Source: Candidatus Enterousia sp. (GTDB lineage Bacteria > Pseudomonadota > Alphaproteobacteria > Rs-D84). Taken from it: a stretch of DNA of 64,000 nucleotides. Position numbers and translations under genes: made by a program. Within the stretch, counting starts at the first letter, position 1. The number at the start of each line of letters is the position of its first letter. Below, piece after piece: positions 9,676-54,432 of the stretch. The stretch spans positions 71,183 to 135,182 of the forward strand of contig JAZNVZ010000002.1 of assembly GCA_045593065.1 (NCBI GenBank). The letters run 5' to 3'. The notes under the pieces are model-generated. The model worked only from the letters and a program-made list of their open reading frames with translations, made no database searches and was not told the DNA's origin.

Positions 9676-11415
9676 TTATTCTGTTACAGGTTCTGGTTGA
9701 TAAATTTCGACATCGCGTGTCATGGCAATAAATTTTTCTGCGCGGCGCGCGGGCAATTCGTCCACTGGCACATCGCGCAAAGATTCCAATGCACCGACAA
9801 CAGAATTTGCAACTAATTCCATTGTTGTTTGCCAATCATTGTGTGCGCCACCTGTGGGTTCGGCAATAATGCCATCAATCACATTCAGGTTTGCCATGTC
9901 GCGCGCAGTTAATTTCATTGCGCTGGCGGCGGCGGCCTTGAATTTATTGTCGCGCCATAAAATGGATGCGCATGATTCAGGGGCAATCACAGAATAAATT
10001 GCGTTTTCCATCATTAAAACCTTGTCGCCAGTTCCAATCGCAATCGCGCCCCCAGAACCGCCTTGACCCACATTGACCGCAACATACGGTGTTTTGATAG
10101 CCAATCCTGTTGAAATTGCCGCGGCGACTGCCTGGGATTGACCGCGTTCTTCGCTTTCACGGCCAGCAAACGCCCCAGCAGTATCAAATAATGAAATCAC
10201 AGGTAGGTTAAAACGTTCGGCCAAACGCATCATACGGACGGCCTTGCGATAACCGTCAGGATTTGCCATACCAAAACGATGTTTTTGACGGGTTTCAATC
10301 GTACGACCAGATTCTTGGCCGATAATTACAGCCGGAATTCCGCGCCAAAAACCGATGCCACTGGCCATTGCGGGGTCTTCGGCATAACATCTGTCGCCGG
10401 CCAGGTATGTCCAATCGTCCACAATCCCGGCGATATAATCCAAGAAATGCGGTCTGTTTTCATGACGCGCCAACAATACTTTGTCATAAGCATCTGTTTC
10501 GCCCATGCCACGAATTTTTTTATCTTTGTCAAATTTTGGTGTTTGTACCTTGATAACCTTTGGGGTAATGGTTTGATGTGTTAATACGCGTAAAATGCGC
10601 GCAATGTTGTCGTGCAAATCTGCGCGCGCAGACACAATGTCGACCATACCGTGTTCGTATAAATAATCAGCGGTCTGGAAATTGCCAGGTAATTTTTCAC
10701 GAATGTTTTGTTCAATTACACGGCGTCCAGCAAACCCAATACGGGCGCCGGCCTCGGCAATATGGATGTCGCCCAACATGGCAAAAGACGCGGTTACGCC
10801 ACCAAATGTCGGGTCTGTTAAAACAACGATATATGGGATTTTTTTGTCGTGCAATTTGTTGACAGCCACGGTTGTGCGCGCCATTTGCATCAATGATAAA
10901 ATATTTTCTTGCATGCGTGCGCCACCACTGGATGTAACCATGACAAATGGTCGATTTAATTCAGCAGCGTGTTCCATCGCAGCAATAATTCCATCGCCAG
11001 CCACGCGCCCCATAGACCCCATCATGAAAAATCCGTTTAATACACAAATAGTAGAATCAATCCCGCCGATTTTTCCATCAGCCGCCACAACAGCATCCGG
11101 GTCCCCGGTATCTTCGCGGGCGGCGGCCAAGCGGTCTTGGTATGATTCGCGGTCAACGAATTCCAATGGGTCATCTGTGGATACAGGTAAATTTAATTTT
11201 TGCCAATTTGCATCATCGAATAATAAATTAAATCTTTGTTTTGGGGTCATAATAAACACATGACCACAACGCGGACATACATAATGATTATCCTTGTAAT
11301 CGCGATAATATACCAATTTTCCGCAAGATTCGCATTTAATCCACATCAATTTAGGAACGCGATCGTATCTTGTGCGTTCTTGGTTTTTTATGCCCGTTTT
11401 TGATTTGAAAAACAT
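9676..11415 (-). CDS. accDA: acetyl-CoA carboxylase carboxyltransferase, fused beta (AccD) and alpha (AccA) subunits
   Basis: N-terminus has the AccD Zn-ribbon (CESCGK...CPRCGH) and CT-beta domain; C-terminal half aligns to AccA from about residue 70 (RPHFLDYI...GQESGR...LPVISLFDTAGAF...GGSGGAIAIG); one continuous 579-aa ORF. Confidence 0.8.
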   Translation of the reverse strand: MFFKSKTGIKNQERTRYDRVPKLMWIKCESCGKLVYYRDYKDNHYVCPRCGHVFIMTPKQRFNLLFDDANWQKLNLPVSTDDPLEFVDRESYQDRLAAAREDTGDPDAVVAADGKIGGIDSTICVLNGFFMMGSMGRVAGDGIIAAMEHAAELNRPFVMVTSSGGARMQENILSLMQMARTTVAVNKLHDKKIPYIVVLTDPTFGGVTASFAMLGDIHIAEAGARIGFAGRRVIEQNIREKLPGNFQTADYLYEHGMVDIVSARADLHDNIARILRVLTHQTITPKVIKVQTPKFDKDKKIRGMGETDAYDKVLLARHENRPHFLDYIAGIVDDWTYLAGDRCYAEDPAMASGIGFWRGIPAVIIGQESGRTIETRQKHRFGMANPDGYRKAVRMMRLAERFNLPVISLFDTAGAFAGRESEERGQSQAVAAAISTGLAIKTPYVAVNVGQGGSGGAIAIGTGDKVLMMENAIYSVIAPESCASILWRDNKFKAAAASAMKLTARDMANLNVIDGIIAEPTGGAHNDWQTTMELVANSVVGALESLRDVPVDELPARRAEKFIAMTRDVEIYQPEPVTE

Positions 11416-11419
11416 GTGT

Positions 11420-11698
11420 TTATCCGTTCATTTTTTTGGTTAATTCGCGGCTGGGTTTGAACAAAATGGTTGTGTTCGCAGCAATCGCCTGGGGGCGGCC
11501 CGTTGACGGATTATACCCAATTTTAGCCGCACGATTGCGCGGCTGGAAAGTGCCAAAACCGCGAATTTCGATACGGTCGCCATTTGCCACCGCGTCAATC
11601 ATAGATTCGGTAACAGTATCCAACATGGCCGCGGCATCGTTTGTGCGCATGCGTTTAAAACTGACCTGGATACTGCGAATAACGTCAGAACGTTTCAT
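11420..11698 (-). CDS. IHF/HU family DNA-binding protein
   Basis: HU/IHF fold signature (RIEIRGFGTFQPRNRAAKIGYNPSTG...ILFKPS); start taken at ATG MKRSD (track start is a TTG). Confidence 0.8.
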   Translation of the reverse strand: MKRSDVIRSIQVSFKRMRTNDAAAMLDTVTESMIDAVANGDRIEIRGFGTFQPRNRAAKIGYNPSTGRPQAIAANTTILFKPSRELTKKMNG

Positions 11699-11799
11699 AG
11701 TTTGTAATCCTTTTGTTATTACTGACAATTTAGCAAATCAGGCAAATATATCAAGTGTTTTTTATGAAATATGCGGTTTTAGGAATTTAATGAAATGGA

Positions 11800-12045
11800 T
11801 TATCTGGTTTTGAATTCTTTGTAAAAAACAGGGGTGTATGTTGGGCATATGGCGGGCGTATCAGGGGTGGATAAAACAGGGAATGTGTTGTTTGTAATAT
11901 TATTTTGTTTAACTGGTTCGGTTTTTTCATAACTAATAGAATTGCAAATCAATACCCATCCCGCAGAAACCAGCAGGGCGGCGGTCACGGATACAATAGC
12001 CCTGATTCCAGATATTTTTTGCTCTTCGGTTAGGCGCGATTTCAT
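11800..12045 (-). CDS. small membrane protein (81 aa), hypothetical
   Basis: ATG MKSRLTEEQ followed by a single TM helix (IRAIVSVTAALLVSAGWVLI); weak support. Confidence 0.3.
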   Translation of the reverse strand: MKSRLTEEQKISGIRAIVSVTAALLVSAGWVLICNSISYEKTEPVKQNNITNNTFPVLSTPDTPAICPTYTPVFYKEFKTR

Positions 12046-12209
12046 AATGTTATCCCGAATTTTGTATTGCTTTCGTATAATTAAAACACAAAATGCATAA
12101 TTTGTCAATACGATTTTTGTAAAAAAAATTGGTGCAATCCAGAACCAATGTTTTTTGTTTTTGTCCACAAACAACAAAAGCCCGCACATTCGGGGCTTTC
12201 GTTGTTTTG

Positions 12210-12455
12210 TTATCTAATTTTTCTGGCAAATGCAGAAATACCTGCGCCCGTCACAATAGAAACTGTACCGGCAACAACTTTGACAATATCTGACTTTTTC
12301 TGTTGTGATGTCCGCACTGTTTCAGATGCGCATGCACCATTGAAAATAAATATAAATCCAGCAATGGCCAAAATAAATGCCAACCCGTCAAAGCCAACAG
12401 TTCTTTTGACATTGTCGCTTTCTTTTTTTATTTCGTTTTTAATATTGTTTTTCAT
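12210..12455 (-). CDS. small hypothetical protein (81 aa) with hydrophobic segment
   Basis: ORF with a TM-like segment (LAFILAIAGFIFIF) and a downstream hairpin terminator at 12174-12212. Confidence 0.35.
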   Translation of the reverse strand: MKNNIKNEIKKESDNVKRTVGFDGLAFILAIAGFIFIFNGACASETVRTSQQKKSDIVKVVAGTVSIVTGAGISAFARKIR

Positions 12456-12779
12456 TGTTTATCCTTTTAGCTGGCACTAATATAATACAAAAAAATAGTT
12501 TGTCAAGATATATCGTGCCGAATTCTCCCCTAAAAATTTTGTTTGTTTTGCGTGAGTTTTGCATTCACGCCAGGGTTATTGGGCTGTTGTGTTTATCAAT
12601 TTGCACCATAGCGATTCGATATTTAGGGTTATCGAACCAGTAATCCTGTACTTTCTTAGGTGGTGCGACAGCATAACCATTGTCCTGTTTTGTCGCGCCA
12701 ATCTTGGGCAAAGCCCGAAAGTCGATTTATTGTAGCAAAAAAAATTATTTAATGCAAATGTTTTTTTGTGTGCTGCGAA

Positions 12780-13345
12780 TTTCTTGGCATTCCAATCGTC
12801 ACCCCGCCGCAGGGCGGGGCCCAGTTGGCGCAATGCGCCAACTTGTGTAATAAAGCAAAAAAACACAAGTTTTGCGGAACGCAAAACTGGATACCGCGCG
12901 TCCGCGGTATGACGGGACTGTTTATTCCCCCGCCACAAAATCGTCACCCCGCCGCATAATCGTCATTCCGGCGCATGCCGGAATCCAGTTTGCGGAGCAA
13001 ACTTGCTCACTTATTACACAAGTCCGCCTATGGCGGACTGGATACCGCGCGAAATTCGCCCACGAAAATTTGCAATTTTCGCGGGGCCCGAAACCGCGGT
13101 ATGACGATTCTGTGGCGGAATCATCAAAATTCAAATAACACAAAAAATATTTGTGATTATAATCAAAATATGATACAATACCCAGCGACAGGTAAGGGAG
13201 AAAACCAATGAAACCCGCAGACAACAAGTAGATGACGCAAACGAAGTTTGCGGAATCGTCACGGTTGCCCCGCAGTCACGGCGCCGGGAGCGCAGCGAAC
13301 GCAGGCGGACGAGGGAATCCTACACACACCTGGAAACGAACGGAG
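12780..13345. repeat. GC-rich cluster of short palindromic repeat units (REP/MITE-like) in an otherwise AT-rich intergenic region
   Basis: Recurring units: aatcgtcaccccgccgc (x2), ATTCCGGCGCATGCCGGAAT inverted repeat, tggataccgcgcg...cgcggtatgacg (x2), tttgcggaacgcaaa / tttgcggagcaaac, tgaaacccgcaga (x2); no credible ORF. Confidence 0.6.
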
Positions 13346-13377
13346 AGATAATTATGAACAACCTGAAACCCGCAGAA

Positions 13378-13412
<35 letters not shown>

Positions 13413-13505
13413 TAGATAACATCTATTGGATGACAGATTATTAATATCGACTGGGCGCGGATGCGTTCGGTCGATATTTTTTTACATATAACGAAAGGAG
13501 AAAAC

Positions 13506-13868
13506 ATGAAACGAATTTTAGTTTTTGCGATTGGCGCGCTGTTTTTGCTGGATGGCCATGCGGCGTTGGTTGTGAATAATAATGGTCCGCAAAAGGATTG
13601 GCAAAACAATATAGAATACCAAGAAGCGCAAGAAATCGCGGCATTAGAAAACGATATTCGTTTATTGGATGCAGAAATTGCAAAGTGTCAAAAAAAGAAA
13701 AAAGCATGGACTGCGGCAACCATCGTTGGTGGCGTGGGTGTTTTGGCGACAGGAACTGCGGCGATAGTTCAAGCGTCCAAGAAAAAAGAACAAAAAACAG
13801 AATTGTCGTCCAAGCAAACAGAACTGAAACAGGCGCAGACAGAGTTAAACAGGTTAAAAAAGGATTAA
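13506..13868 (+). CDS. secreted/membrane coiled-coil protein, first of a tandem paralog pair
   Basis: AAGGAG SD then ATG; signal peptide (MKRILVFAIGALFLLDGHA), coiled coil, Gly-rich TM segment (AATIVGGVGVLATGTAAIVQ), then charged tail. Confidence 0.55.
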   Translation: MKRILVFAIGALFLLDGHAALVVNNNGPQKDWQNNIEYQEAQEIAALENDIRLLDAEIAKCQKKKKAWTAATIVGGVGVLATGTAAIVQASKKKEQKTELSSKQTELKQAQTELNRLKKD

Positions 13869-13871
13869 AGA

Positions 13872-14744
13872 ATGAAAAAATATGCGATTATTGGAATAAT
13901 AGTTGGGCTGATACCGACATATGTGTTTGGTGCCAGTGTGCGGTATAACCAGTTGATAGAAAAAAAGCAACGCAAGATGCAAGAATTAGAAAAATGCACA
14001 GGGAATGTAAATGCTTGGAAAATCGCTGGCATATCAACGACTGGATTGACGGCGGTTGGTGTTGCTGGCAATGTTGTGTTGGCAAAACAACGTGGTGATT
14101 TGGACAAAAGTATTCAAAACACAACGAACCAAATAAGCACAACCAAAGACAAGATAGCTGAATTAAAAGCAAAAAAACAAAAATCAGGGCCCAGCGAAAC
14201 AGAACAAACCCCTGCGCAACCGGAAACCCCTGCAACAGAATCTGACAACACTTGGCAAACATTGACCGATGAACAAATGAAAGAATTCTGTTATTCGCTT
14301 GTATACAATGATGAGTCGAACGACAATCTATTTGATGACGATGCTTTTCAAGAACTGAGTGATTATTATTATGAAGATGAAGGAAGGAAGCCTGTCTATG
14401 GATTTTCTAATGACGTGGATGGAGAAAAACCTGATTATTATAATTATGACTCCTCAACACGTACATGTACGTTTATATATGTGGATAAGGAAACCCGATA
14501 TGCTGGGGTGGCCTGTATCAAATTTCCAGAAATAAAGGTAGTAAAAGTCGCAGACGGCAGTGCATCAGAAGATGCAGACGACGAATGGGATATAGACGGT
14601 AAGGTTTTTACGCTGGACTTTGAAGAAGATGGTGAGTCATATTGGGTTGGCAACAAAACGCGGTTGGATGACAATGATGCCGCTTCAAGTAATTATATAA
14701 ATGAAAACCAAGAGTATTGTATAAAAACCAGCGCCAGTCATTAA
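13872..14744 (+). CDS. secreted/membrane coiled-coil protein with acidic C-terminal domain, second of the tandem paralog pair
   Basis: Same architecture as 13506 ORF (signal, coiled coil, C-x-G-N...AWKIAGISTTGLTAVGVAGNVVLA TM segment) plus a 170 aa D/E-rich C-terminal extension. Confidence 0.6.
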   Translation: MKKYAIIGIIVGLIPTYVFGASVRYNQLIEKKQRKMQELEKCTGNVNAWKIAGISTTGLTAVGVAGNVVLAKQRGDLDKSIQNTTNQISTTKDKIAELKAKKQKSGPSETEQTPAQPETPATESDNTWQTLTDEQMKEFCYSLVYNDESNDNLFDDDAFQELSDYYYEDEGRKPVYGFSNDVDGEKPDYYNYDSSTRTCTFIYVDKETRYAGVACIKFPEIKVVKVADGSASEDADDEWDIDGKVFTLDFEEDGESYWVGNKTRLDDNDAASSNYINENQEYCIKTSASH

Positions 14745-15219
14745 TTAACCCGCACCGCCCGTTTGTCCTGTTTTATCATGATGAAAACAGATGGGCGGTT
14801 TTCCCCCGATAAACAATAAAAAAGTAGGGCGAAAGGATTGGCTCGGCATAAATGCCTGCGCCGCATTCGTTAGCACTCAAACTTCGCAAGGCTCGTTTTC
14901 GTTTACTCATAATCGAACCAGACAACTTCGTTGTGATGTATCAAATCCAAATTTCGCAACGATCACAAAATTAAAACCACCATAAAGGTGGTTTGAATTT
15001 TCTGGTCGGGGGCAATTCCCCCTCGATACACAATAACAAAAATCTATAAAAATTCGTGGGGACAAAAACTCCATTTTTATGATTTTTTTAATTGTGTATT
15101 CTCGTATTCACCATGCGTGTCTTGTTGGCTGTCGCCAACAAAAACTTCGTTTTCAAACGGCACCTGTCGTGCCGTTGACACTCTGGCGCATCCTTTCGCC
15201 CCGATGTAAACAGTTTAAT

Positions 15220-15253
15220 AAAAAAAGACCATCTTGTGATGGTCTTTTTTTAT
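15220..15253. terminator. hairpin terminator immediately 3' of tRNA-Pro
   Basis: agaccatc-ttgt-gatggtct flanked by A7 and T6. Confidence 0.6.
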
Positions 15254-15259
15254 TAAATC

Positions 15260-15336
15260 TGGTCGGGGCGAAAGGATTCGAACCTTCGACACCTTGGTCC
15301 CAAACCAAGTACTCTACCAGACTGAGCTACGCCCCG
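15260..15336 (-). tRNA. tRNA-Pro (anticodon TGG)
   Basis: Reverse complement CGGGGCGTAGCTCAG...anticodon loop TTTGGGA...TTCGAATCC...CGCCCCGACCA; 77 nt with CCA. Confidence 0.85.
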
Positions 15337-15435
15337 AAACAGACCACAGTATAACATGTTTTTTACTGATTGCAAGTGCAATTCTTAAAAAATATCTTGT
15401 GTATTTTATGTGTTTTGTTTTAGAATATTTATGAA

Positions 15436-16425
15436 ATGAAGGGATTGTTCAAAATTTTGCCTGTGTTATTAGTGCTGGTGCCGTTGGCGGGGTACGGGCG
15501 CAATGTCGTGTCGCGCGCTGCCCGGGTGACCAGTACGCCAACAGCAGGATACACATACAATTATATGTACCCTTATTTGAATAATCAAATGCGCCAGACA
15601 TTAAATCCAGGTGATGCCAATGACCAGAGTACCAGTCCTATAAATGTTTTGGTGCGTACCACACCAATGGCGGCGGCCCAAAATACCCAGGTTCGAAATG
15701 TTGCGCCGCGCCGGGCATCGCGTTCGGCGATAAATGCGGGTGGGGCAACGCCCAACAATAATCAAACAGTGGCGCGTTCCGCGCGGGGCAGTTATGCGCC
15801 AGCAACGGCAGTATCAAATATATCAAACGCGAATCGCAATGTTGCGCCGCGGCGGGCGGTTGCGCGTTCTGGGCGTTCAAATAATGCGTCAACAGTGGCA
15901 ACTGTGAATTATGCGGTTGGGGGCCGTTATGTGTCGTCCAGTCAATGCTTGTCTGATTATATGGAATGTATGAACAGTTATTGTGTGCGCACAGATATGC
16001 CGTATAATCGTTGTTTTTGCAGTTCTCGGTTGGCCCAGATTGATGGAACATACCAACCGCAAATTGATTCGTTGGTGCAACAGGTTTTGCGCGCCCGTGA
16101 TACAACCGCGTGGACAGATGCGGAAATGGCAACATATTGGTATGAAAATATTGGACAATATGTCGGCGAAAATACTTGGCAAAATCTGGACGATGCATTG
16201 GATATTGATTGGTCTGATGCAGGTGAACGTATGCGCGGTCAAAATGCCTATCTGGCGGGACACGAATATTGCGTGAATAATTTGAAAAATTGCGCGTATG
16301 CATCGCCAAATATGCGTGATTTATATCGGTCTGAAATTTCGCGTGATTGTACGGATTATGAAAATTCGTTAAAACGGTTAAAGACCGCATTGGAATCTGT
16401 GTTGGAAACATATCAAAATCAATAA
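15436..16425 (+). CDS. secreted protein with Ala/Arg/Asn-rich repeats and C-terminal Cys-motif domain
   Basis: Signal peptide; repeated NVAPRRA...ARS units; C-terminal CLSDYMECMNSYC motif resembling CTEKFMKCLTEFC in the 22392 product. Confidence 0.55.
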   Translation: MKGLFKILPVLLVLVPLAGYGRNVVSRAARVTSTPTAGYTYNYMYPYLNNQMRQTLNPGDANDQSTSPINVLVRTTPMAAAQNTQVRNVAPRRASRSAINAGGATPNNNQTVARSARGSYAPATAVSNISNANRNVAPRRAVARSGRSNNASTVATVNYAVGGRYVSSSQCLSDYMECMNSYCVRTDMPYNRCFCSSRLAQIDGTYQPQIDSLVQQVLRARDTTAWTDAEMATYWYENIGQYVGENTWQNLDDALDIDWSDAGERMRGQNAYLAGHEYCVNNLKNCAYASPNMRDLYRSEISRDCTDYENSLKRLKTALESVLETYQNQ

Positions 16426-16604
16426 GTTTCGCACATTTTATTGTGGCGATAAATATTGCGTGCTAAATCATCGCTGATAACATCCCAATCTGGGGCGTGC
16501 CCGAAAATTAAATCGCAATCGTGGTGTGTTTCAATCGGCAATGGTGTATTTTGCGCGCAAGATGTTACGAATATCGCGCATCCCAGTACGATAAGTTTCT
16601 GCAT
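16419..16604 (-). CDS. small putative lipoprotein (61 aa)
   Basis: AAGGAA SD, signal peptide with lipobox-like VTSC; overlaps the next ORF by 74 nt. Confidence 0.35.
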   Translation of the reverse strand: MQKLIVLGCAIFVTSCAQNTPLPIETHHDCDLIFGHAPDWDVISDDLARNIYRHNKMCETY

Positions 16605-16758
16605 TTATTTTTTCCTTTTTTATTGTTTGGGTTTGGTTGTGTTCGATGGTTTGTGTGATTATTTCTTGGGTGCATTTGGTGCGACCAACATGATGCCCAA
16701 TTAAATATATTCCCATCAATAGTGCGATAATTGCGCCATATAAATATATTTTAGTCAT
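16531..16758 (-). CDS. small membrane protein (75 aa), hypothetical
   Basis: AAGGA SD then ATG MTKIYLYG, one TM helix; overlaps 16419-16604 in another frame. Confidence 0.3.
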   Translation of the reverse strand: MTKIYLYGAIIALLMGIYLIGHHVGRTKCTQEIITQTIEHNQTQTIKKEKINAETYRTGMRDIRNILRAKYTIAD

Positions 16759-16769
16759 GTGAATCCTTT

Positions 16770-16800
16770 GATAAAAAAAAGACACCCGAATGGGTGTCTG
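16770..16800 (-). terminator. rho-independent terminator downstream of rho
   Basis: gacaccc-gaat-gggtgtc hairpin followed by T8 on the minus strand. Confidence 0.65.
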
Positions 16801-16822
16801 GATAATTTTTTGCTGATGTTTT

Positions 16823-18091
16823 TTACTGATTCATAGAATTGAAAAAATCATCGTTCGTTTTTGTTACGCGTAATTTATCCAATACAAATTCCATTGCCTC
16901 GGCCACGCCCATTGGGTTGATAACGCGGCGCAAAACATATGTTTTAGACAATATTTCTTTGCTGACCAACAAATCATCTTTGCGTGTGCCAGATTTTGTG
17001 ATGTCAATAGCAGGATAAATGCGTTTGTCGGACAATTTTCTGTCCAAAATAATTTCGCTGTTGCCGGTTCCTTTGAATTCTTCAAAAATAACCTCGTCCA
17101 TTTTGGAACCCGTATCAATCAAAGCAGTTGCGATAATTGTCAATGAACCACCACCTTCGATATTACGGGCGGCGCCAAAGAATCTTTTTGGTCTTTGCAA
17201 TGCGTACGCATCAACACCACCGGTTAAAACCTTGCCAGATGATGGAACGCAAGTGTTGTATGCGCGCCCCAAACGGGTGATAGAATCCAACAAAATCACG
17301 ACATCTTGGCCGGATTCAACCAATCTTTTTGCCTTTTCGATAACCATTTCTGCCACCTGGATATGGCGGGCGGCCGGTTCGTCAAATGTAGATGAAATTA
17401 CTTCGCCTTTGACACTGCGTTGCATATCGGTCACTTCTTCGGGGCGTTCATCAATCAACAAAACAATCAGTTTTACATCTGGATAATTTGTTGCGATAGA
17501 ATGCGCAATATTTTGCAACATAATTGTTTTACCAGTGCGTGGTGGCGCAACAATCAGTGAACGTTGCCCTTTGCCGGTTGGAGAAATCAAATCGATAACG
17601 CGTGCGGTTAAATTACGACCTTTGTCGGTATCGGTTGGAACCTCCATTTTCAGCATTTCATCTGGATAAAGTGGGGTCATGTCATCAAAAGAAATACGAT
17701 GACGCAATTTTTCAGGTGTGTCGCCGTTAACCTTTTCAATAGTTTCCAATGCAAAATAACGTTCGGATTCGTTTTGTGGTGCTTGGATTATACCTTCGAT
17801 ATAATCGCCAGTTTTCAAACCGTATTTTTTAATCAAATTTGGCGATACATACAAATCGTCCGGCCCCGCCAGATAATTACTTTCTGGGGCGCGCAAAAAT
17901 CCGTATCCATCAGGCAGACGTTCCAATACGCCATCACCGATTAACACGACATCCTTGTCCGCCGCATAAACGCGCATAACGGCAAAACGTAATTGCTGAA
18001 CATTTAATTGCGATGGGTTTTCAATACCCATATCTTCGGCAATTTTTAACAGTTGCTGTGGCGATTTTGCCTTTAATTCATTAATATTCAT
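16823..18091 (-). CDS. rho: transcription termination factor Rho
   Basis: N-terminal RNA-binding domain, RecA-like ATPase (PPRTGKT Walker A), 422 aa, high identity to the canonical Rho pattern throughout. Confidence 0.92.
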
Positions 18092-18229
18092 AAAAAGTCC
18101 TTTTGGAAAATTGGGCAGAATTCGCCCGTTGAGATAGGCATATTATATACAAATTTGATAAAAATGTCAAGAAATAAAGAAAACGCACTTGAATTTTTGG
18201 TAATTTTGGTTTAGAATATGCCGTGCGTT

Positions 18230-18306
18230 GCGCCCATGGCTCAACTGGATAGAGCAACAGATTTCTAATCTGTGGGTTGCAGGTTCGAGTCCTGCTGGGC
18301 GCGCCA
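18230..18306 (+). tRNA. tRNA-Arg (anticodon TCT)
   Basis: GCGCCCATGGCTCAACTGGATAGAGC...anticodon loop TTTCTAA...GGTTCGAGTCC...GGGCGCGCCA; 77 nt. Confidence 0.85.
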
Positions 18307-18488
18307 TCCGTCTTTGCTAACGCAAATCCGCGATTAGCAATTTTTTTATTATGTGGAATTAGCAGGACGAGAACCGACCAAAGTTGCGTCAGCAACGACA
18401 GGTTCGACAACGAGTAGATTTTGCAAACAAAGTGCAGCAAAATCGTTAGGAATGCCCCACAGCCGGCACAATTTTGTGCCGAGCGAGG

Positions 18489-18508
18489 GAGTCCTGCTGG
18501 GCGCGCCA
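18489..18508 (+). repeat. 20 bp direct repeat of the tRNA-Arg 3' end (gagtcctgctgggcgcgcca), 182 bp downstream of the gene
   Basis: Exact copy of tRNA positions 18287-18306; att-like scar. Confidence 0.75.
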
Positions 18509-18514
18509 TAAATT

Positions 18515-18541
18515 CAAAACCGCCAACCTGGCGGCTTTTTA
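18515..18541. terminator. hairpin terminator (aaaccgccaacctggcggcttttt)
   Basis: GC stem with T-run; sits at the 3' end of the convergent 18539-19684 gene. Confidence 0.55.
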
Positions 18542-19684
18542 TATGTCTGCGGCGTGGGCAGATGCCCATGCCCATTGCAAATTATATCCGCCCAAATCGC
18601 CCGCGATATCCAGCACTTCGCCAATAAAATACAGGTTTGGACATAATTTTGATTCCATTGTTCTTGATGATATTTGCGCTGTATCAATACCGCCACGCGT
18701 AACCTCGGCCAATTCCAATGTTTGCAAGGCAGGTTTTGCGATTTTTATATTTGCAATTTTGTCAGTAATGTCGCGTAGTTCGCTGTCGCGCCAATCAGCA
18801 ATGTTTCGCGTGTCGCCGTTTGTGATAAATTCTGCCACGCGTTCTGGCAATTTGGTGGCGAGTATTGTTTTTAACTGTTTTTTTCCGTTTGTTTTTTTAT
18901 TTTCGCGCAGCCAATCAAATATCTCTATGTTCGGCAATAAATTTATTGTAATGCCGTTCGATAAATCCCGCGCTGTTGCGCGATAAATCGCCGGGCCGCC
19001 CAATCCAAAATGCGTAAACAACATATCGTCATGGATTATATCGCGGTTGATTTTAATTTCGACCGGGATTGATATTCCAGATAACCCGGCATTAAAAAAA
19101 TCTGTCTTGATTGCGCACAGTGCAGGGCGAATTGGCACGATTTTATGCCCAAATTGTTTCGCAATTTTGTATCCAATGTCGCTGACCCCCAGGTTTGCAT
19201 AAGACATGCCGCCAGTTGCAACAACTAATTTGTGTGCAGAATATGTTGCGCCATTTATTGTCATTACAACGAATTTATTATCAATTTTGTGGACAGAATT
19301 CACAGTGGCGTTTGATAGAATTTTCGCGCCGTGCGCGTCTGTCAGTAATGCGTTGATAATTTTTGTAGATGATTCCGCAAAATATTGGCCAGGTGTTTTT
19401 TCATAAATTTTAATACCATGTGATTTTACCCAATCGACAGTATTTTGGGGTGTCCAACGTGCCAATGCGCCGCGTACAAAATCAGGGTTTTGCCCAAAAT
19501 AATGGGTGTGATTAGCACGCAAATTTGTAAAATTGCATTTGCCACCACCAGAAACACCAACCTTGCGCCCAGGTGTGGCACCCATATCCAGCACACACAC
19601 CGATTTACCGGCGGATACGGCACGCGCCGCTGCCATTAATCCGGATGCGCCTGCGCCAATAATAATAATGTCAAATGTGTTCAT
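18539..19684 (-). CDS. FAD-dependent flavoprotein, HI0933/YhiN-like family
   Basis: N-terminal dinucleotide-binding motif DIIIIGAGASGLMAA, 381 aa, family-typical length. Confidence 0.75.
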   Translation of the reverse strand: MNTFDIIIIGAGASGLMAAARAVSAGKSVCVLDMGATPGRKVGVSGGGKCNFTNLRANHTHYFGQNPDFVRGALARWTPQNTVDWVKSHGIKIYEKTPGQYFAESSTKIINALLTDAHGAKILSNATVNSVHKIDNKFVVMTINGATYSAHKLVVATGGMSYANLGVSDIGYKIAKQFGHKIVPIRPALCAIKTDFFNAGLSGISIPVEIKINRDIIHDDMLFTHFGLGGPAIYRATARDLSNGITINLLPNIEIFDWLRENKKTNGKKQLKTILATKLPERVAEFITNGDTRNIADWRDSELRDITDKIANIKIAKPALQTLELAEVTRGGIDTAQISSRTMESKLCPNLYFIGEVLDIAGDLGGYNLQWAWASAHAADI

Positions 19685-19776
19685 ACCACTGATTTTGGCA
19701 TAATAGGTCGCAAAAATAAAGCATTTTAATTTTTTGGCTTGCGTCCGTCAAAAAAAGGTGTAATAATCGCACCCGT

Positions 19777-19853
19777 GGGTTAGTAGCTCAGTTGGTTAGA
19801 GCGGAGCGCTCATAACGCTTTGGTCGTGGGTTCGAGTCCTACCTAACCCACCA
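19777..19853 (+). tRNA. tRNA-Met (anticodon CAT); elongator/initiator/Ile2 identity not resolved
   Basis: GGGTTAGTAGCTCAGTTGGTTAGAGC...anticodon loop CTCATAA...GGTTCGAGTCC...CTAACCCACCA; G1-C72 paired, so probably not initiator. Confidence 0.8.
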
Positions 19854-19859
19854 CAAAAA

Positions 19860-19886
19860 ATCGCACATGCTTTGTGCGTTTTTTTA
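19860..19886 (+). terminator. terminator after tRNA-Met
   Basis: cgcaca-tgcttt-gtgcg followed by T7. Confidence 0.55.
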
Positions 19887-19922
19887 TTTCTATTTTTAGT
19901 GTGTTTGGTATAGAATTGCGGT

Positions 19923-21194
19923 ATGACCGAATTAGTGCAAATTTTGAGTGATGTGCAAAAACAGGCGTTCAATACGATTGAACACACAAATTCTAATGTT
20001 TTAATTATGGGGCAGGCAGGCACCGGAAAATCTACATTTGTGAATTATTTAAAATCTGCATCGGCGAAACGCATTGTGTGTGCATGTCCTACGGCGGTCA
20101 GTGCGTTGAACATTGGTGGGCAAACAATTCACAGTTTGTTTCAAATTCAACCGCGTGATTTCATCATGCCTGAATTTTTGAAATTAAAGGCCAAAACACG
20201 AAATATATTGGCGGCAACAGATGTTTTGATTGTTGATGAAATATCTATGGTTGCGCCAGATTTGCTGGATGCAATGGATTTATTGGCGCGTCAGGCGCGG
20301 CGCAATAACGCACCGTTTGGCGGAATTCAAATTGTAGCAATCGGCGATTTGTACCAACTGCCGCCGGTAATTACAAATGACGCAACAAAATATTATAAGC
20401 AAGAATATGGTTTTGAAAATTCATATTTTTTCGATAGTCATGTATATGCCCGTGCGGATTTTTTGCGATTTTCTTTTAACCGGGTGTATCGTCAAAATGA
20501 TGGCGAATTGTTGGAAAATCTGGTGCGGTTGCGTGGCGGTGATTTAAATGCGCTGGAATTTTTTAATAAATGCAAAATTAATGACCCAGAATGTCGTGCT
20601 AATGCGGTATTAATCACACCTTATCGCGCAATGGCTGAAAACATCAACGCATCACGATTGCGGGAAATTAATGCACCAGAGTATGCTTTTACTGGTGAAT
20701 TGACTGGAAATTTTGTAGAAAAAGATGTGCCTGCGCCGATGCGTTTGGTATTAAAAGTTGGGGCTTTGGTTGTTTTTGTTAAAAACAGTGATAAATGGCA
20801 TAACGGTTCAATGGGTCGCGTTGTGGAAATTGGTGCGCGTGAAATTCGGGTGCAATTATTGGATACATCGCGAACGATTGTGTCTGTACGACCTGAAAAA
20901 TGGGAAAAAATTGAATATGTGCGTGATGATAATGACCGGTTAACCGAACATGAAATTGGTTCGTATAAACAATTCCCGTTGAATTTGGGGTACGCCATGA
21001 CAATTCACAAGGCGCAAGGAAAAACCCTGGATGCGGTGGTGGTTGATATTTCGCGTGGCGCGTTTGCACATGGCCAGACCTATGTCGCGTTATCACGGAC
21101 ACGCGCTGCGTGCGATATGCATGTGGCAAACATGTTGCGTCCACGCGATGTTATTTTTGATAAACGCGTTCTGGATTTTATGAACGCAGAATAA
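19923..21194 (+). CDS. PIF1/RecD-like superfamily 1 DNA helicase
   Basis: Walker A GQAGTGKST, DExx-like LIVDEISMV, conserved helicase motifs through the C-terminus; 423 aa. Confidence 0.75.
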   Translation: MTELVQILSDVQKQAFNTIEHTNSNVLIMGQAGTGKSTFVNYLKSASAKRIVCACPTAVSALNIGGQTIHSLFQIQPRDFIMPEFLKLKAKTRNILAATDVLIVDEISMVAPDLLDAMDLLARQARRNNAPFGGIQIVAIGDLYQLPPVITNDATKYYKQEYGFENSYFFDSHVYARADFLRFSFNRVYRQNDGELLENLVRLRGGDLNALEFFNKCKINDPECRANAVLITPYRAMAENINASRLREINAPEYAFTGELTGNFVEKDVPAPMRLVLKVGALVVFVKNSDKWHNGSMGRVVEIGAREIRVQLLDTSRTIVSVRPEKWEKIEYVRDDNDRLTEHEIGSYKQFPLNLGYAMTIHKAQGKTLDAVVVDISRGAFAHGQTYVALSRTRAACDMHVANMLRPRDVIFDKRVLDFMNAE

Positions 21195-24952: not shown

Positions 24953-25043
24953 GGAGATGTGGCAGAGCTGGTTGAATGCGCGCGACTCGAAATCGCGTAT
25001 ACGGGCGACCGTATCGGGGGTTCGAACCCCTCCATCTCCGCCA
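24953..25043 (+). tRNA. tRNA-Ser (anticodon CGA)
   Basis: GGAGATGTGGCAGAGCTGGTTGAATGC...anticodon loop CTCGAAA...long variable arm...GGTTCGAACCCCTCCATCTCCGCCA; 91 nt. Confidence 0.85.
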
Positions 25044-25191
25044 GGAATAAAAAGGCACGCGATTTATTGCGTGTATTTTTATTCGTGTGATGTTTTGGGT
25101 TCGAACCAACGAGTGGGGGTTCGAACCGTAGCAAAAAGGCGGAATAACGCCGGTTTGCCCACAGGGCAAATTTTGCAAGGTGGCGAAGCAC

Positions 25192-25208
25192 CCCCTCCAT
25201 CTCCGCCA
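25192..25208 (+). repeat. 17 bp direct repeat of the tRNA-Ser(CGA) 3' end (cccctccatctccgcca), 149 bp downstream of the gene
   Basis: Exact copy of tRNA positions 25027-25043; the intervening 148 bp also contains T-arm-like fragments (gggttcgaacc x2). Confidence 0.7.
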
Positions 25209-25368
25209 TCCGCTTTCGGGTTTGCCCACAAAATTTTTCAAATTTTGCGGGGGCCCGTTTTCGCTATAGCGAGATTGCATCCAGCAAGAAATAATATGCG
25301 ATTTTTTGTATTTGTTTTGTGTTTTGAAATGTGATAAAATATTGTTGTATATAGATGGGGGGGGATTT

Positions 25369-26247
25369 ATGAAAAATTATATTGTTATCTGTGTGTTGTG
25401 TGGTTTGATGTTGCCTGCATTTGGTGCAAATCGTTCTATGATTGCGGCGGCGCCAGCCGGCAACGACAGTGTTCGTGCCACCGCCATCAAGAATAATCAA
25501 TTTGTAATAAACAACAAATCAAATGACAATGTTAAATCGTCTGTGCGCAAACAACATGGTGTTGCCGTTTTATCTGCGGTGCCTGTGGATGAAACCCCGG
25601 GTGTCAGTGTGGTTGATGATGACCCACGGCCTGCGGATTCGCGTATATTAGAAAATGCCACGAAACGCGCCGCGTGTGTTGATAATAATGTTGGCGCATC
25701 AAACACATTTGTGTGGGCATCCCGTAACAGCAATACATCCAGTTATTCAACAATGATAGAAGATACAGAAAATCCTGAAAATAATGTTTGTTTTGTCGCG
25801 GTTTCTATGCAGTCCAAGGATTCACGTGTAAATATTTCTGATATCCAACCGCGTTATTTTGCAATGGGTGATGTGGTAAATTGCGGGTCTTGGGTTGACC
25901 AGGGTGTTTTAGAAAAACGCATTCTTGACGGCAAAAAAACGGTTCGTGTGTTGTCTGCGGTTGGCGCGGCGGTTGGTGGTGCGGCATTGGGTGTCGGCGC
26001 GATGGAGGCATTTGGAAACAAACTGTTGGCAAAAAATGATAGTTTGTCGGGATTAGAAGGACAAAGAGCGTTGGATGATGATAATTTGTTGGTTTCCAGG
26101 TTGTTGTCCGTCAAAGGGTCGGATGATTATAACAAAGTATATCAGGCCATAGAAACGCTTGCAGACGGTTGTAAAAGCTCGAACGATGGTGTGTGCGCAA
26201 AACACAACTGGAATCAAATAAAATCTCAGTTGGATAGCAGACAATAA
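25369..26247 (+). CDS. secreted hypothetical protein
   Basis: Signal peptide MKNYIVICVLCGLMLPAFGA; Gly/Ala-rich hydrophobic segment; no motifs. Confidence 0.5.
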   Translation: MKNYIVICVLCGLMLPAFGANRSMIAAAPAGNDSVRATAIKNNQFVINNKSNDNVKSSVRKQHGVAVLSAVPVDETPGVSVVDDDPRPADSRILENATKRAACVDNNVGASNTFVWASRNSNTSSYSTMIEDTENPENNVCFVAVSMQSKDSRVNISDIQPRYFAMGDVVNCGSWVDQGVLEKRILDGKKTVRVLSAVGAAVGGAALGVGAMEAFGNKLLAKNDSLSGLEGQRALDDDNLLVSRLLSVKGSDDYNKVYQAIETLADGCKSSNDGVCAKHNWNQIKSQLDSRQ

Positions 26248-26264
26248 CATACGGAGGAAATGAT

Positions 26265-27014
26265 ATGTCTATCAAAAAATTTATGGTTTTAGCAATTTTA
26301 TTGACACCGTGTGTTGGTATTAATGCCGCAAACGCCGCAAACTTGAAGTTTAATGATAACACGAGTGCGAATACCAAGAACGGGTTTTATTATATTTATG
26401 ACCTTAATGAAAAAAGTAATGTGACCGGTGTGTATGATGAATATGGTGGCAAGCAGACAAAATATAAGAATAGTGGCTTGGTACAAACTTGTAATGGTCA
26501 AAATTTAAGATATTACAACGATTGGGAAAAATATGCGAGTGCGGTTGTTATTGATTATGACTGCACAATTTACTACCACTGCAATAACCAAGAATCAGGG
26601 CAAGGCGACAGCGCATTTTTTAACGGCGCAGATTGCTGGCCGTCTTGTGAAGGTATGACAACCAAGGATAAATCTGGTTCGTCTTCATCATCATCTGGGG
26701 GTGATGCGACTGGTACTAGCACACCATCAGCCAACCAGGAATCACCATTGGTACGCGCGGCGGAGATAGTTGATAATTTTTCAAATGGTTTTGGTAAGGC
26801 CAATCAGTGGGTAAATGCGGATGGTGGTTTTAATACTGCGCGTTTGGTGTCTGATTCTGTTGCGGGTGTGCTGTTGGGTAGTGCAGGCGGCGTTATAACC
26901 GGTGTGGTTGTTAAAAAGAATCAGGTGAAAAAAGGATTCGAAGATATTTCTTGCAGTGTCGGTGGACAGATTTTGGGTAATTATGGTGATGATATTCGTA
27001 TCAGTAATCAATAA
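26265..27014 (+). CDS. secreted hypothetical protein with Ser-rich linker
   Basis: Signal peptide MSIKKFMVLAILLTPCVGINAANA; several Cys; SSSSSGGD linker. Confidence 0.5.
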   Translation: MSIKKFMVLAILLTPCVGINAANAANLKFNDNTSANTKNGFYYIYDLNEKSNVTGVYDEYGGKQTKYKNSGLVQTCNGQNLRYYNDWEKYASAVVIDYDCTIYYHCNNQESGQGDSAFFNGADCWPSCEGMTTKDKSGSSSSSSGGDATGTSTPSANQESPLVRAAEIVDNFSNGFGKANQWVNADGGFNTARLVSDSVAGVLLGSAGGVITGVVVKKNQVKKGFEDISCSVGGQILGNYGDDIRISNQ

Positions 27015-27049
27015 AATATAACAATATAAACACTGTATTTTAATGTTTT

Positions 27050-27084
27050 TGTTCTGCCCCAACCATAGGGCAGAATTTTTTTTA
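27050..27084 (+). terminator. rho-independent terminator
   Basis: ttctgcccc-aaccata-gggcagaa followed by T8. Confidence 0.65.
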
Positions 27085-27196
27085 GCAATTCCGCACAAGT
27101 GGTAGAGCGCACAAACAGGCAGAGTATTAATAATCTTGACAATATATATATTTGTGCTATTTTTGACAAAAAGAACCCAAAAAAAAGGATGCAAAT

Positions 27197-28237
27197 ATGA
27201 AATCCAAAAAAACAATTTTTACTGTTGGCATGGCGACATTATTGTCTGTGGTGACAGCTAATTCTAAAAACCGCACAGAAAACATAGCAACGCCTGAACC
27301 TGTGCGTAATACAGTTGTTGAACCCCGCGATACGGTGGCGGCGGCCAATGATTCTGTGATTTATAATGCGGCAAATGAAAAATCAACCGATGTGTCGGGT
27401 GTAAAACCGCGCATTGTTAAAACCCAGGCAGATGTATTACACAATAAAATTGTACAATCTGCAAAACCCATTATTATTGATGCTTTACAAGATTTAGAGC
27501 GTGTTTTGGCGTCTTATTCGTTGAACATAGATTGGAATGCGCAACGCGCAGAATTGATGAATATTTTGTCGCCATACGGCGAAGATTTAGATACGCCAAA
27601 TCGTGAAAGCGCGCGTTTGTTTGAATATGCGTGGAATCAAAATGAATTCTTGCGCGTATTGTTGCAGAAAAACAAAGTGTTCAGTAAATATGATGAACGC
27701 ACCCAGGCAGAAATTCAACGGTTTGTGATTCGTTGGTATGTTGGGACTATGCGCGAATTAAAACAAAACAGGGTGGCGTTATCTAAACAATTTGCAGAAT
27801 ATTATCCTGTGTTGAATTTGGATGATGTTCCCCAAGATTTACAAAAATTGTTTGCGGATTATGACCCTGCGGTTATGCAAAACGGCAACAAAATTTCGTA
27901 TGGTTATAAAAAATTATCAAATGCGCCTGTGTCTATTGAACGCAAAATAACCGTACGCAGTGGGAATATAAATCCTGCATTCTTTAATGTTGATAGCGCA
28001 AATTATGAATTAATATCTGTGGGAAAATACAGATGGCAAGTGTCCAGAACATTGGGCAATACGGTTGAAACATCGCCGGCGTTTTATTGTGCGGCTGATT
28101 TTGATACAGTATGGACATTTGGCGCACGCGATAATAGTTTTGTTGCCACCGCATATGGCGCAAAACCAGGTGTGCAAATATCTGTGTCTAATGTTTTATA
28201 TCAACGCGCTGCAACAAAAAATGACAAAGTGCGTTAA
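27197..28237 (+). CDS. secreted hypothetical protein (346 aa)
   Basis: Signal peptide MKSKKTIFTVGMATLLSVVTANS; no recognisable catalytic motifs. Confidence 0.5.
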   Translation: MKSKKTIFTVGMATLLSVVTANSKNRTENIATPEPVRNTVVEPRDTVAAANDSVIYNAANEKSTDVSGVKPRIVKTQADVLHNKIVQSAKPIIIDALQDLERVLASYSLNIDWNAQRAELMNILSPYGEDLDTPNRESARLFEYAWNQNEFLRVLLQKNKVFSKYDERTQAEIQRFVIRWYVGTMRELKQNRVALSKQFAEYYPVLNLDDVPQDLQKLFADYDPAVMQNGNKISYGYKKLSNAPVSIERKITVRSGNINPAFFNVDSANYELISVGKYRWQVSRTLGNTVETSPAFYCAADFDTVWTFGARDNSFVATAYGAKPGVQISVSNVLYQRAATKNDKVR

Positions 28238-50859: not shown

Positions 50860-50955
50860 AAGTTTTAAAACCGTCCGTTAGGGCGGTGTTTAATTTTGTC
50901 GGCAAAGGGGCGAGAATCTCGCCGTAGTGAAACGCAGGCGGATTGCGAGGCGAGG
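50843..50955 (+). repeat. 113 bp direct repeat, left copy (tRNA-Gly 3' end plus 96 bp)
   Basis: 112 of 113 identical to 54245-54357; a further 18 bp copy of the tRNA 3' end lies at 50976-50993. Confidence 0.9.
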
Positions 50956-51200
50956 TTATGAAATAACCGAAGTACTTTGCTCGCACCAAAGTTAAAATGT
51001 TAGAAATCCGGGCATTTGCACCGGATTTTTTGTTTTATATCGCAAATTACCGGTGCGGATAATGTTTTGAATTTTCAACATTTTTTGCTTTGCATACAAA
51101 AAACGCAGAAATCCGCCGTTTTTTGATAATTTACTATATCGGGGAAATAGTTTCTATCCAAATATGATGCAAAAAGTGCCCATAAGGGCACTATTTTTAA

Positions 51201-52124: not shown

Positions 52125-52126
52125 TG

Positions 52127-53989: not shown

Positions 53990-54244
53990 AAATCTTTCCT
54001 TCCTTTACGCAATAATTATAGAAGTTTTTTTACAATCACCACAATAAAAAAATCATTCTCTCGGTATCTATTATACCACAAAAAATAATCGCAAATAACA
54101 AAAACGTAAAAAAATCGTTTGCTTTTACCAAAAAACACGATAAACCCAAAGGGTGTTAGGCAAAGCGTCAGGCAAACTGATAAAAAAGCAGGTAAAAAGC
54201 GGTCAAAAGGGTTAAAAAATTGGCTAAAAATGGTCAAATGCGTT

Positions 54245-54357: not shown

Positions 54358-54432
54358 CGACATATAGCCATCGAAGTACTTGACAAAATGAAATAATGCA
54401 CTATAATTGTCTTTGTCAATAAACCAAGGGAG

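Follow-up and report, generated by a model that had tools for sequence, protein, structure and literature searches.

A strain-polymorphic 202-bp insertion behind tRNA-Arg(TCT) in Candidatus Enterousia and a family of tRNA-linked, hairpin-rich units

Transfer RNA genes are classic landing sites for genomic islands, and in the usual picture the island carries its own integrase and anything smaller is regarded as debris. Tycheposons insert at tRNA genes and form arrays with partial tRNA copies between the elements, together with degenerate remnants (10.1101/2020.12.28.424599). Cis-mobilizable elements (CIMEs) are flanked by attachment (att) sites, contain no recombination genes and are presumed to depend on the recombinase of another element (PMC5704250, PMC6323972). 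In Escherichia coli, the RtT repeats (rttR, Rfam RF00391) lie at the tRNA-Tyr gene tyrT, and rttR is reported to be encoded by one tyrT repeat unit. Here we analyze the tRNA-Arg(TCT) gene of an uncultured alphaproteobacterium, Candidatus Enterousia sp., within a stretch of 64,000 nucleotides of contig JAZNVZ010000002.1 (the whole stretch analyzed, termed the window). The gene is followed by a recently gained unit of 202 bp that ends in a copy of the tRNA 3' end and that may be a non-autonomous integrative element.

A sequence-only reading of the window had drawn attention to a 20-bp copy of the 3' end of this tRNA, located 182 bp downstream of the gene. The locus is arranged as follows:

18230-18306 (+), tRNA-Arg(TCT), intact, with CCA encoded (ARAGORN; Rfam RF00005, 70.5 bits)
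18287-18307 (+), left copy of a 21-bp direct repeat, attL-like, from T-loop position 57 to CCA, plus T
18307-18508 (+), inserted 202-bp unit, tRNA-linked, of the kind termed type A below; the site is empty in L081, L127 and L128
18489-18509 (+), right copy of the 21-bp direct repeat, attR-like
18510-18543 (+), native tRNA-Arg terminator AAATTCAAAACCGCCAACCTGGCGGCTTTTT (terminator scan), which directly abuts the tRNA in empty sites

The 20-mer GAGTCCTGCTGGGCGCGCCA occurs exactly at 18287-18306 and 18489-18508. Allowing up to three mismatches reveals no third occurrence in the window, and 100 dinucleotide-preserving shuffles produced none. The duplication that had been pointed out is therefore exact and unique in the window, and a T shared by 18307 and 18509 lengthens it to 21 bp, GAGTCCTGCTGGGCGCGCCA(T), at 18287-18307 and 18489-18509. 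The same reading had described the 182 bp in between as free of open reading frames (ORFs) and as containing hairpins, and we agree on both counts: the interval holds merely mechanical ORFs of 40-52 aa and is rich in hairpins, with a minimum free energy (MFE) of -71 kcal/mol (z = -4.2). A protein-coding function is out, since these ORFs are mechanical and the indels within the family described below are not multiples of three. A tRNA-like gene, a piece of transfer-messenger RNA, a group I or II intron, a known ribozyme and a riboswitch are likewise out, because ARAGORN and Rfam match only the true tRNAs. The terminator scan is passed only by the hairpin behind the second repeat copy (18520-18534 plus a T run).

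That the unit is an insertion can be read directly from a strain of the same species. L081, a 258-kb metagenome contig, encodes a Rho protein identical to that of the window and is 98-99% identical to the window over 9 kb, which assigns it to the same species. In the window the tRNA lies between rho (16823-18091, minus strand) and a gene for an HI0933-like flavoprotein (18539-19684, minus strand). In L081 the tRNA-Arg gene is directly followed by TAAATTCAAAACCGCCAACCTGGCGGCTTTTT, which corresponds to the window from 18509 onward, and the unfilled junction reads …GCGCGCCATAAATTC…. Taken alone, this empty site could be explained by a deletion between the repeats, and an outgroup was therefore needed. 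It is provided by two independent assemblies (L127 and L128) of a sister species whose HI0933-like protein is 83% identical. Both have the same gene order, PIF1, HI0933-like, tRNA-Arg and rho, and the same empty site as L081, and in their alignment the native terminator is conserved, with compensatory changes in its stem. Since the empty site is also found in the outgroup, the empty state is ancestral, and the possibility that it is the product of a precise deletion is ruled out. Thus, 18307-18508 is a derived, recent and precise gain of 202 bp, accompanied by a 21-bp duplication and polymorphic between strains. In further searches, the HI0933-like protein had none but distant relatives in a genome collection (no more than 44% identity), and for three window proteins and P0241 no exact match was retrieved.

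These results also bear on what the sequence-only reading had left undecided. It would have given way if the downstream copy were part of an element present in all relatives without polymorphism, and the empty sites in the conspecific strain and the sister species are the opposite of that. Between its two suggestions, a small tRNA-targeting element suits the locus; repeated integration and decay does not. "Scar" and "decay" are unfitting here, because the unit arrived whole and because its interior is conserved, covaries and is common to other tRNAs and species.

Like tRNA-targeting islands, the unit is inserted at the 3' end of a tRNA gene, has a direct repeat of the tRNA 3' segment at its far end and leaves the tRNA intact. 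Partial tRNA copies on the flanks, degenerate remnants and arrays built up in tandem by successive integrations are further features shared with islands and tycheposons, and in two relatives (L090 and L124) the arrays are headed by a tRNA-adjacent integrase. Unlike these systems, however, the unit measures 202 bp, is gene-less and has a conserved structured core, and its 21-bp att identity lies at the short end of the range. As in CIMEs, attL- and attR-like repeats bound a segment without recombination or transfer genes. CIMEs, in contrast, are kilobase-sized deletion derivatives of integrative and conjugative or integrative and mobilizable elements, whereas the window unit has no known parent and looks like a family of its own, with uniform size and conserved structure. 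No parent element with matching ends was found in viral contigs, in phage and plasmid collections or in the fetched loci.

Within the unit the following parts can be distinguished:

18314-18347 (+), weak hairpin TTGCTAA(13)TTAGCAA followed by T7, an apparent element-borne substitute for the tRNA terminator (read from sequence)
18352-18356 (+), TGTGG, which pairs with CCACA of the core motif in the MFE fold
18361-18368 (+), AGCAGGAC, inverted complement of GTCCTGCT in the 3' copy (MFE fold)
18383-18396 (+), hairpin H1, GTTGC gtca GCAAC, its position kept across the family and its sequence different in every lineage
18401-18407 (+), GGTTCGA, the T-loop 5' half of a partial tRNA copy that resumes as GTCCTGC... 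beyond the core
18408-18490 (+), 83-nt core composed of CAACGAGTA, H2, GTTAGGAATGCCCCACAG, H3 and CGAGGGA (covariance model R1, 75 bits, E 5.5e-17)

The core contains the helices H2 (18417-18424 with 18437-18444) and H3 (18464-18470 with 18475-18481) and a closing helix of three pairs, P3, between three C of the C-run 18455-18458 and the GGG at 18487-18489. The match to R1 covers 18408-18486 only, since of two overlapping CGAG the model took the first. The same order of parts defines what we call type A units: CCA, a terminator-like hairpin, often an inverted tRNA copy, H1, GGTTCGA, a core of 72-95 nt (CAAnnAGTA, H2, AATCGTCACGATTGCCCCGCAG, H3, CGAGGGA) and a closing tRNA copy that begins with (A/G)TCC or CCC. 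The terminator-like hairpin is weak in the window Arg unit, where it fails the G+C rule of the terminator scan, and strong in the other type A units, which have terminators at this position. Inverted copies are exemplified by AGCAGGAC at 18361-18368 and by GCGAAAtttGGAT in the type A unit behind tRNA-Pro of the window, and similar ones are present in L107, in the type B and Gly-X units described below and in E. coli RtT. If the core is removed, GGTTCGA^(A/G)TCC... is joined, which is the T-loop and 3' end of the tRNA itself (GGTTCGA^GTCC in the Arg unit). The unit therefore holds a partial tRNA copy that is split in the T-loop by the core.

The kinship of the unit with other sequences was not evident from BLAST comparisons of the window inserts and emerged only via a homologous unit in a different organism. 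In that locus (L107), met by chance in a metagenome scan with the chromosomal junction, tRNA-Arg(ACG) is followed by a terminator and, some 170 nt later, by 20 nt that repeat the 3' end of this tRNA and by a further terminator, and the interior aligns with the window insert. Moreover, the loci around Rho homologues of related uncultured Alphaproteobacteria all have a tRNA-Pro(TGG) about 1.5 kb from rho, and in many of them a type A module lies behind it. A profile (nhmmer) and R1 match three places in the window, the one behind tRNA-Arg and two others:

14827-15001 (-), second type A unit, behind tRNA-Pro(TGG), with its core at 14839-14912 and ending in a truncated 13-nt copy, AATCCTTTCGCCC (nhmmer 3.7e-29; R1 59 bits)
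13222-13316 (+), core copy outside any tRNA (R1 60.5 bits), within an insert of ~155 bp at ~13218-13372

Outside the window the two models match L081-L083, L091, L107, L109-L113, L119 and L124/L125; the neighboring tRNA is Arg(ACG) in L107 and Pro in L081-L083, L091, L109-L113 and L119. R1 also finds the core behind tRNA-Arg(TCT) of a third species (L130/L131, E 4e-15), which was fetched after R1 had been built and is not among the model sequences. Unrelated loci totaling 945 kb gave no match with the profile or R1, and R1 had none in the sister species; nor was there one for the type A unit in Rfam or, by BLAST of the unit, in the phage and plasmid collections. In all, several uncultured gut Alphaproteobacteria have type A units, placed behind tRNA-Arg(TCT), Arg(ACG) or Pro(TGG) or, as a degenerate version, behind Ser(CGA). 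The units are of uniform length (175-226 bp), with repeats of 21 to ~50 bp. All tRNA-adjacent forward units lie on the strand of the tRNA and immediately 3' of it, and the 3' copy always tracks the neighboring tRNA, including two sequence variants of tRNA-Pro (GAATCCTTTCGCCC vs CCCTCTCACCCCGACCA vs GTCCTGCTGGGCGCGCCA). Judged from these comparisons, there is clearly an undescribed, conserved family of small hairpin-rich putative elements behind at least four tRNA species in related bacteria.

Core and flanks have different histories. The L131 Arg(TCT) core and the L082 Pro core are 93% identical, and the left parts of these units are ~60% identical, which is noise level; the two Arg(TCT) cores, on the other hand, are only 75% identical, and cores do not group by tRNA. 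The core has thus evidently been exchanged between loci independently of the tRNA-specific flanks. In L124 it is reversed and occupies a mini-element of 157 bp that has a tRNA-Pro copy on either side. Cores were found in three contexts, and GA closes the left flank in each of them (TTCGA, GGCGA and GCAGA). The arrays vary as well: units are tandem in L113 and L119 and elsewhere single or alternating with small integrase-less cargo cassettes, L109 and L111 differ by one cassette and one unit, and strains with an identical Rho protein have different arrays at tRNA-Pro. The proteins encoded by the cargo beside type A units are unrelated between the window and L082. Several cassettes (L082, 7765-7860; L109, 6533-6660 and 7601-7720; L111, 6533-6650) open with a conserved module of ~85 nt, made up of the inverted repeat GAGTTCGArAG...CTCGAACTC and a conserved GTGTCAAATTTTAATGGTTTCTGTATGG segment, and the latter is also found beside the integrase of L124.

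The core is under selection for its secondary structure. Covariation was counted on a model-guided alignment of 13 distinct cores, which is fitted to the model and so favors structure; in it 87% of the cells pair, compared to 68% in column shuffles, and 0 of 500 shuffles attain the observed value. Both sides have changed in 13 of the 17 pairs, and controls with slid partners pair in only 30-44% of cells. In sequences read directly, P3 varies between CCC/GGG, CAC/GTG and GGC/GCC. RNAalifold applied to the raw MAFFT alignment gave almost no consensus structure, and a structure set by hand and realignment with a covariance model were required. The covariation is almost purely Watson-Crick, with a single G-U cell among 207, and one-sided changes are nearly absent. 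In this small and related sample, the near-absence of G-U is a modest hint that the hairpins may matter in DNA rather than in RNA.

We favor, at slightly better than even confidence, the view that 18307-18508 is a protein-less, non-autonomous integrative mini-element inserted at the 3' end of tRNA-Arg(TCT). In the process we envisage, an excised form, a small circle or other, would use the tRNA 3' segment as its attachment site and recombine with the tRNA gene in the manner of Campbell; the predicted circle junction is ...CGAGGGAGTCCTGCTGGGCGCGCCATCCGTC... / …GCGAGGGAGTCCTGCTGGGCGCGCCATCCGTCTTTGC…. Insertion was probably carried out by a site-specific integrase. The likeliest catalyst would be a trans-acting tyrosine integrase of the ~500-aa family that heads the tRNA-Pro arrays of relatives, and this family may in addition be what mobilizes the cargo cassettes that lack an integrase. 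The core would act at the DNA level, either as a recombination-associated hairpin module or as a nested mini-element targeting GGTTCGA^, and would not be random filler.

Genes for 501-504-aa integrases (Phage_integrase), members of a large family in these Alphaproteobacteria, lie directly behind tRNA-Pro in L090 and L124. The L124 array (9777-21027) starts with a 2.1-kb element between 8-9-nt tRNA copies, in which the 501-aa integrase gene is alone. It is followed by several integrase-less cassettes bounded by tRNA 3' copies, one with DUF4238, and among them the mini-element with the reversed core. At its left end, the integrase element is similar to the corresponding end of the tRNA-Gly island of the window. 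Such integrase-headed arrays make mobilization in trans plausible. The L124 array ends in a copy truncated at its 3' side, and its layout is reminiscent of an integron.

Several observations weigh against the favored view. There is no island-type integrase or transposase among the genes of the 64-kb window, whose sole tyrosine recombinase (60124-61086, minus strand) has 320 aa and the Phage_int_SAM_1 and Phage_integrase pair typical of XerC/D-like proteins, and the 202-bp unit itself has no credible ORF and hence no integrase of its own. Neither an excised circle nor an attP junction was found: both ends of the insert are unmatched in viral contigs, and the unit is unmatched in the phage and plasmid collections. 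The tRNA 3' 20-mer hits only phage tRNAs or attP sites with unrelated flanks in viral contigs, and two core motifs give only chance matches there, in coding regions (L108, L134). The L124 integrase element has arm-type repeats and no core, so that the core is not demonstrably a site of that enzyme. Repeats varying from 21 to ~50 bp would also be expected from homologous recombination anchored on the conserved tRNA. A circle of 202 bp is very small for synapsis. Finally, the unit is bracketed on the tRNA strand by a weak terminator and a strong one, as would be expected of a co-transcribed small RNA.

This last point leads to E. coli RtT, for which we checked the tyrT-tyrV region of strain K-12 directly (NC_000913, 1286300-1287800; L126). 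There, 178-bp units follow the tRNA immediately on its 3' side, in its own orientation and in tandem. The last 19 nt of each unit repeat the 3' end of tRNA-Tyr from within the T-loop onward (AATCCTTCCCCCACCACCA), and the tRNA 3' segment recurs in inverted form, GGGGAAGGAT, close to the 5' part of the unit. GGTTCGA is followed by a hairpin-rich insert of ~70 nt, the removal of which restores GGTTCGA^ATCCTTCCCCCACCACCA (T-loop GGTTCGA^ATCC), and short motifs recur (GGTTCGAC..CGAG, TTGCCGCAG and GGCGAAGC). The window unit has the same architecture: it is located 3' of a tRNA, closes with a copy of 19-20 nt, has an inverted copy farther upstream and contains an insert behind a T-loop motif. It differs in having 202 instead of 178 bp, in being single at tRNA-Arg and in its host, an uncultured alphaproteobacterium. 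Moreover, it is a recent polymorphic insertion that coexists with cargo cassettes and integrases, a situation that, to our knowledge, has not been described for RtT. At its gathering score RF00391 has no match in the window, and it has none at E values of up to 10 over 18150-18600 and 25030-25320; it does not match L082 or L119 at E values of up to 1, in a search in which the E. coli units score 133-138 bits. Conversely, R1 has no match in the tyrT region. As neither covariance model recognizes the other family, we do not file the unit as RtT. In the literature consulted we found no description of the RtT unit as a partial tRNA-Tyr copy with a split T-loop and an inverted copy. The tyrT locus shows raised coverage in circular-DNA-enriched "mobilome" sequencing under stress, for which the authors claim no circles (10.1101/2024.07.17.603846).

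The resemblance raises the alternative that the unit is chiefly an RtT-like small RNA gene and its mobility secondary, which we consider unlikely. Such an RNA would be co-transcribed with tRNA-Arg by read-through of the weak first hairpin (18314-18347) and end at the native terminator, the only one of the two to pass the scan. It would be released by tRNA-processing enzymes because its 3' end copies that of the tRNA, and the inverted copy would pair with it to form a minihelix. Examples of small RNAs flanked by dual terminators come from rrn operons (PMC8144298), and the orientation of all tRNA-adjacent forward copies, the conserved helices, the RtT architecture and the location of the 13222-13316 copy within a promoter-proximal mRNA leader are consistent with an RNA. 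A covariation that is nearly free of G-U cells and one-sided changes, however, is unusual for RNA helices. Moreover, strong terminators precede the module in most members of the family, terminal units lack CCA, the L124 core is reversed and no Rfam family matches.

It is slightly more doubtful that the 72-95-nt core itself is the mobile part, as a miniature single-stranded DNA (ssDNA) element or folded recombination site akin to the palindrome-associated transposable elements (PATEs) of IS200/IS605, the repetitive extragenic palindromic (REP) elements with their RAYT transposases, the folded attP of CTX phage or integron attC sites. Insertion of the core would take place 3' of ...GA, preferably into the T-loop GGTTCGA^ of non-essential partial tRNA copies, and the 202-bp unit would be its carrier. 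Compared by their general features only, these hairpin-dependent elements share with the core its small size, its Watson-Crick-covarying hairpins, sharp ends without obvious target duplication and inverted repeats that, when folded, can give a duplex copy of the target. The boundaries of the core are indeed constant (...GA^CAAnnAGTA ... CGAGGGA^), with a hairpin near each, GA at the end of all three left flanks and the T-loop restored upon removal, and the 93% identity of Arg and Pro cores within unrelated flanks would suit a mobile core. The GGG/GTG/GCC before the right boundary covaries with the CCC/CAC/GGC 5' of the last hairpin, which resembles the pairing between guide and cleavage site in IS200/IS605 as established for IS608. 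H2, in turn, is preceded by GTAG, a feature of REP elements. The end hairpins themselves do not fit: H2 and H3 are unlike each other, vary between copies and are unlike IS200/IS605 ends, and the integron consensus RYYYAAC/GTTRRRY is missing from the unit ends. A cognate enzyme was not found: the 64-kb window contains no TnpA or RAYT gene, and no HUH/Y1 transposase, TnpB or IntI is present in the window or in the fetched loci with genes examined. The array integrases have ~500 aa, with only PF00589 detected, whereas IntI integron integrases are much smaller. In addition, the observed events (202 bp and ~155 bp) moved more than the core, and the independent target sites are too few to define a target motif.

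A plain decay scar, in which a larger island or prophage at tRNA-Arg was deleted down to a functionless 182-bp remnant between attL and attR, is very unlikely. The site was empty ancestrally, and the 202 bp are either there in full or missing altogether; moreover, units are uniform in size (175-226 bp), and their interior is conserved and covaries across species and tRNAs. Cargo-bearing units with the same ends do exist for type B (L093, L094 and L097) and for the tRNA-Gly island, and degenerate partial tRNA copies are common in such arrays (the L124 array; 10.1101/2020.12.28.424599), but no cargo-bearing version with the ends of this unit was found in viral contigs, phage and plasmid collections or fetched loci.

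Least probable of all, and by now far-fetched, is a guide RNA resembling the omega-RNA of TnpB or the crRNA of Cas12, in which the ~140-nt conserved module would be the scaffold and the variable 14-20-nt tRNA copy a 3' guide steering an RNA-guided protein to tRNA 3' ends: although the tRNA has a fixed TTCGA 5' of the match and the post-core segment of the non-tRNA copy, GAATCCTACACACAC, resembles its local target GAACTCTACACACAC at 13/16 positions, no module-carrying locus has an effector gene nearby (the window neighbors are rho and the HI0933-like flavoprotein gene), the host's own essential tRNA gene would be targeted, the reversed L124 copy is followed by non-tRNA sequence, the match is equally explained as an attachment-site repeat and the covariation is Watson-Crick only.

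The remaining units of the window complete the picture. Duplications at tRNA-Ser(CGA), tRNA-Gly and, more weakly, tRNA-Pro had been proposed from the sequence, and copies are present at all three. The tRNA-Ser(CGA) 3' segment at 25027-25043 recurs at 25192-25208 (17 identical bp, or 20 bp including one mismatch), the tRNA-Gly 3' end at 50975-50988 (14 bp) and 54245-54261 (17 bp), and tRNA-Pro has weaker copies near 15010-15002 and 14839-14827; tRNA-Met and tRNA-Ser(GCT) of the window have none. The proposal to align the intervening segments with each other bore fruit only in part: in pairwise BLAST of the Arg, Ser, Gly and Pro inserts, only Gly-X and Gly-X' matched. By their sequences, the inserts at Ser, Gly and Pro do not all belong to one family; Pro2, the unit at 14827-15001, is of type A, the Ser insert is a degenerate relative of it, and Pro1 and Gly-X are of other types. 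The units not listed so far are:

15002-15259 (-), type B unit directly behind tRNA-Pro, with a terminator, the inverted copy GGGGCGAAAGGAT, hairpins and the copy CCCCGACCA
25044-25208 (+), tRNA-Ser(CGA) unit, with a terminator, T-loop fragments, the TTTGCCCACAG motif, hairpins and a 17-20-nt copy
50860-54376 (+), tRNA-Gly array, with a 115-bp X (containing the inverted copy GCAAAGGGG), a 14-bp copy, a 3.2-kb hsdS/hsdM island, a 17-bp copy and a second X

Type B units and Gly-X share the logic of terminator, inverted copy, hairpins and direct copy, and type B units are split by ~1.8 kb of cargo in the relatives L093, L094 and L097. The terminator directly behind tRNA-Pro (window 15215-15259, minus strand; L081 6833-6870) is wholly different in the two strains and its flanks are identical. 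In L081 it equals the terminator after the next tRNA copy, which suggests module swapping or gene conversion between repeats. The tRNA-Ser(CGA) unit, the degenerate type A relative, is matched by neither the profile nor R1 nor the RtT model. Downstream of it are three consecutive ORFs (25306-28237, plus strand; 313, 249 and 346 aa) without a Pfam match, which could be island cargo, and a 1116-aa ORF at 29456-32806 (minus strand) also lacks a Pfam match. The tRNA-Gly island consists of hsdS (51201-52124) and hsdM (52127-53989) only, with neither hsdR nor an integrase, and direct repeats resembling GGTCAAA, of the kind usual at integrase arm sites, are present in its right arm.

The ~155-bp insert with the core copy outside any tRNA (13218-13372, plus strand) is missing from L081, has the 12-bp repeat TGAAACCCGCAG on both flanks and supplies the small ORF that it interrupts with a substitute ribosome-binding site and start codon. 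It occupies the 5' end of this tiny ORF (MKPAELYTHTHT...), which has a long (CA)n tract and lies upstream of the ORFs 13461-13868 and 13872-14744; the length of the tract differs between strains, so that it may be phase-variable. At 12811-13059, ~220 bp of G+C-rich palindromic repeats in two blocks (GGTATCCAGT... and CGGCGGGGTGACGATT...) are also missing from L081 and resemble REP elements or miniature inverted-repeat transposable elements.

Returning to the reading of the unit as a non-autonomous mini-element, a gene-less 202-bp sequence is here seen as a clean, recent gain, with hairpins under selection, tRNA-specific ends and a core that passes from one tRNA locus to another. This would imply an unrecognized layer of tiny non-autonomous elements or recombination modules that build arrays behind tRNA genes in gut Alphaproteobacteria. 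A bolder version, which we offer as a tentative possibility of low but appreciable probability, is that the core is an unrecognized miniature mobile or recombination module that acts as folded ssDNA and homes to the T-loop GGTTCGA^ of dispensable tRNA copies, and that E. coli RtT, unexplained since 1978, is its enterobacterial version. If this were true, tRNA-linked repeats would be widespread, cryptic mini-elements directed at T-loops, and integrase-poor cassette arrays resembling integrons would be seeded by them behind tRNA genes. In any case, the RtT-like anatomy suggests a testable origin for a decades-old curiosity of E. coli tyrT, and with it a tractable organism in which the enzyme may be found.

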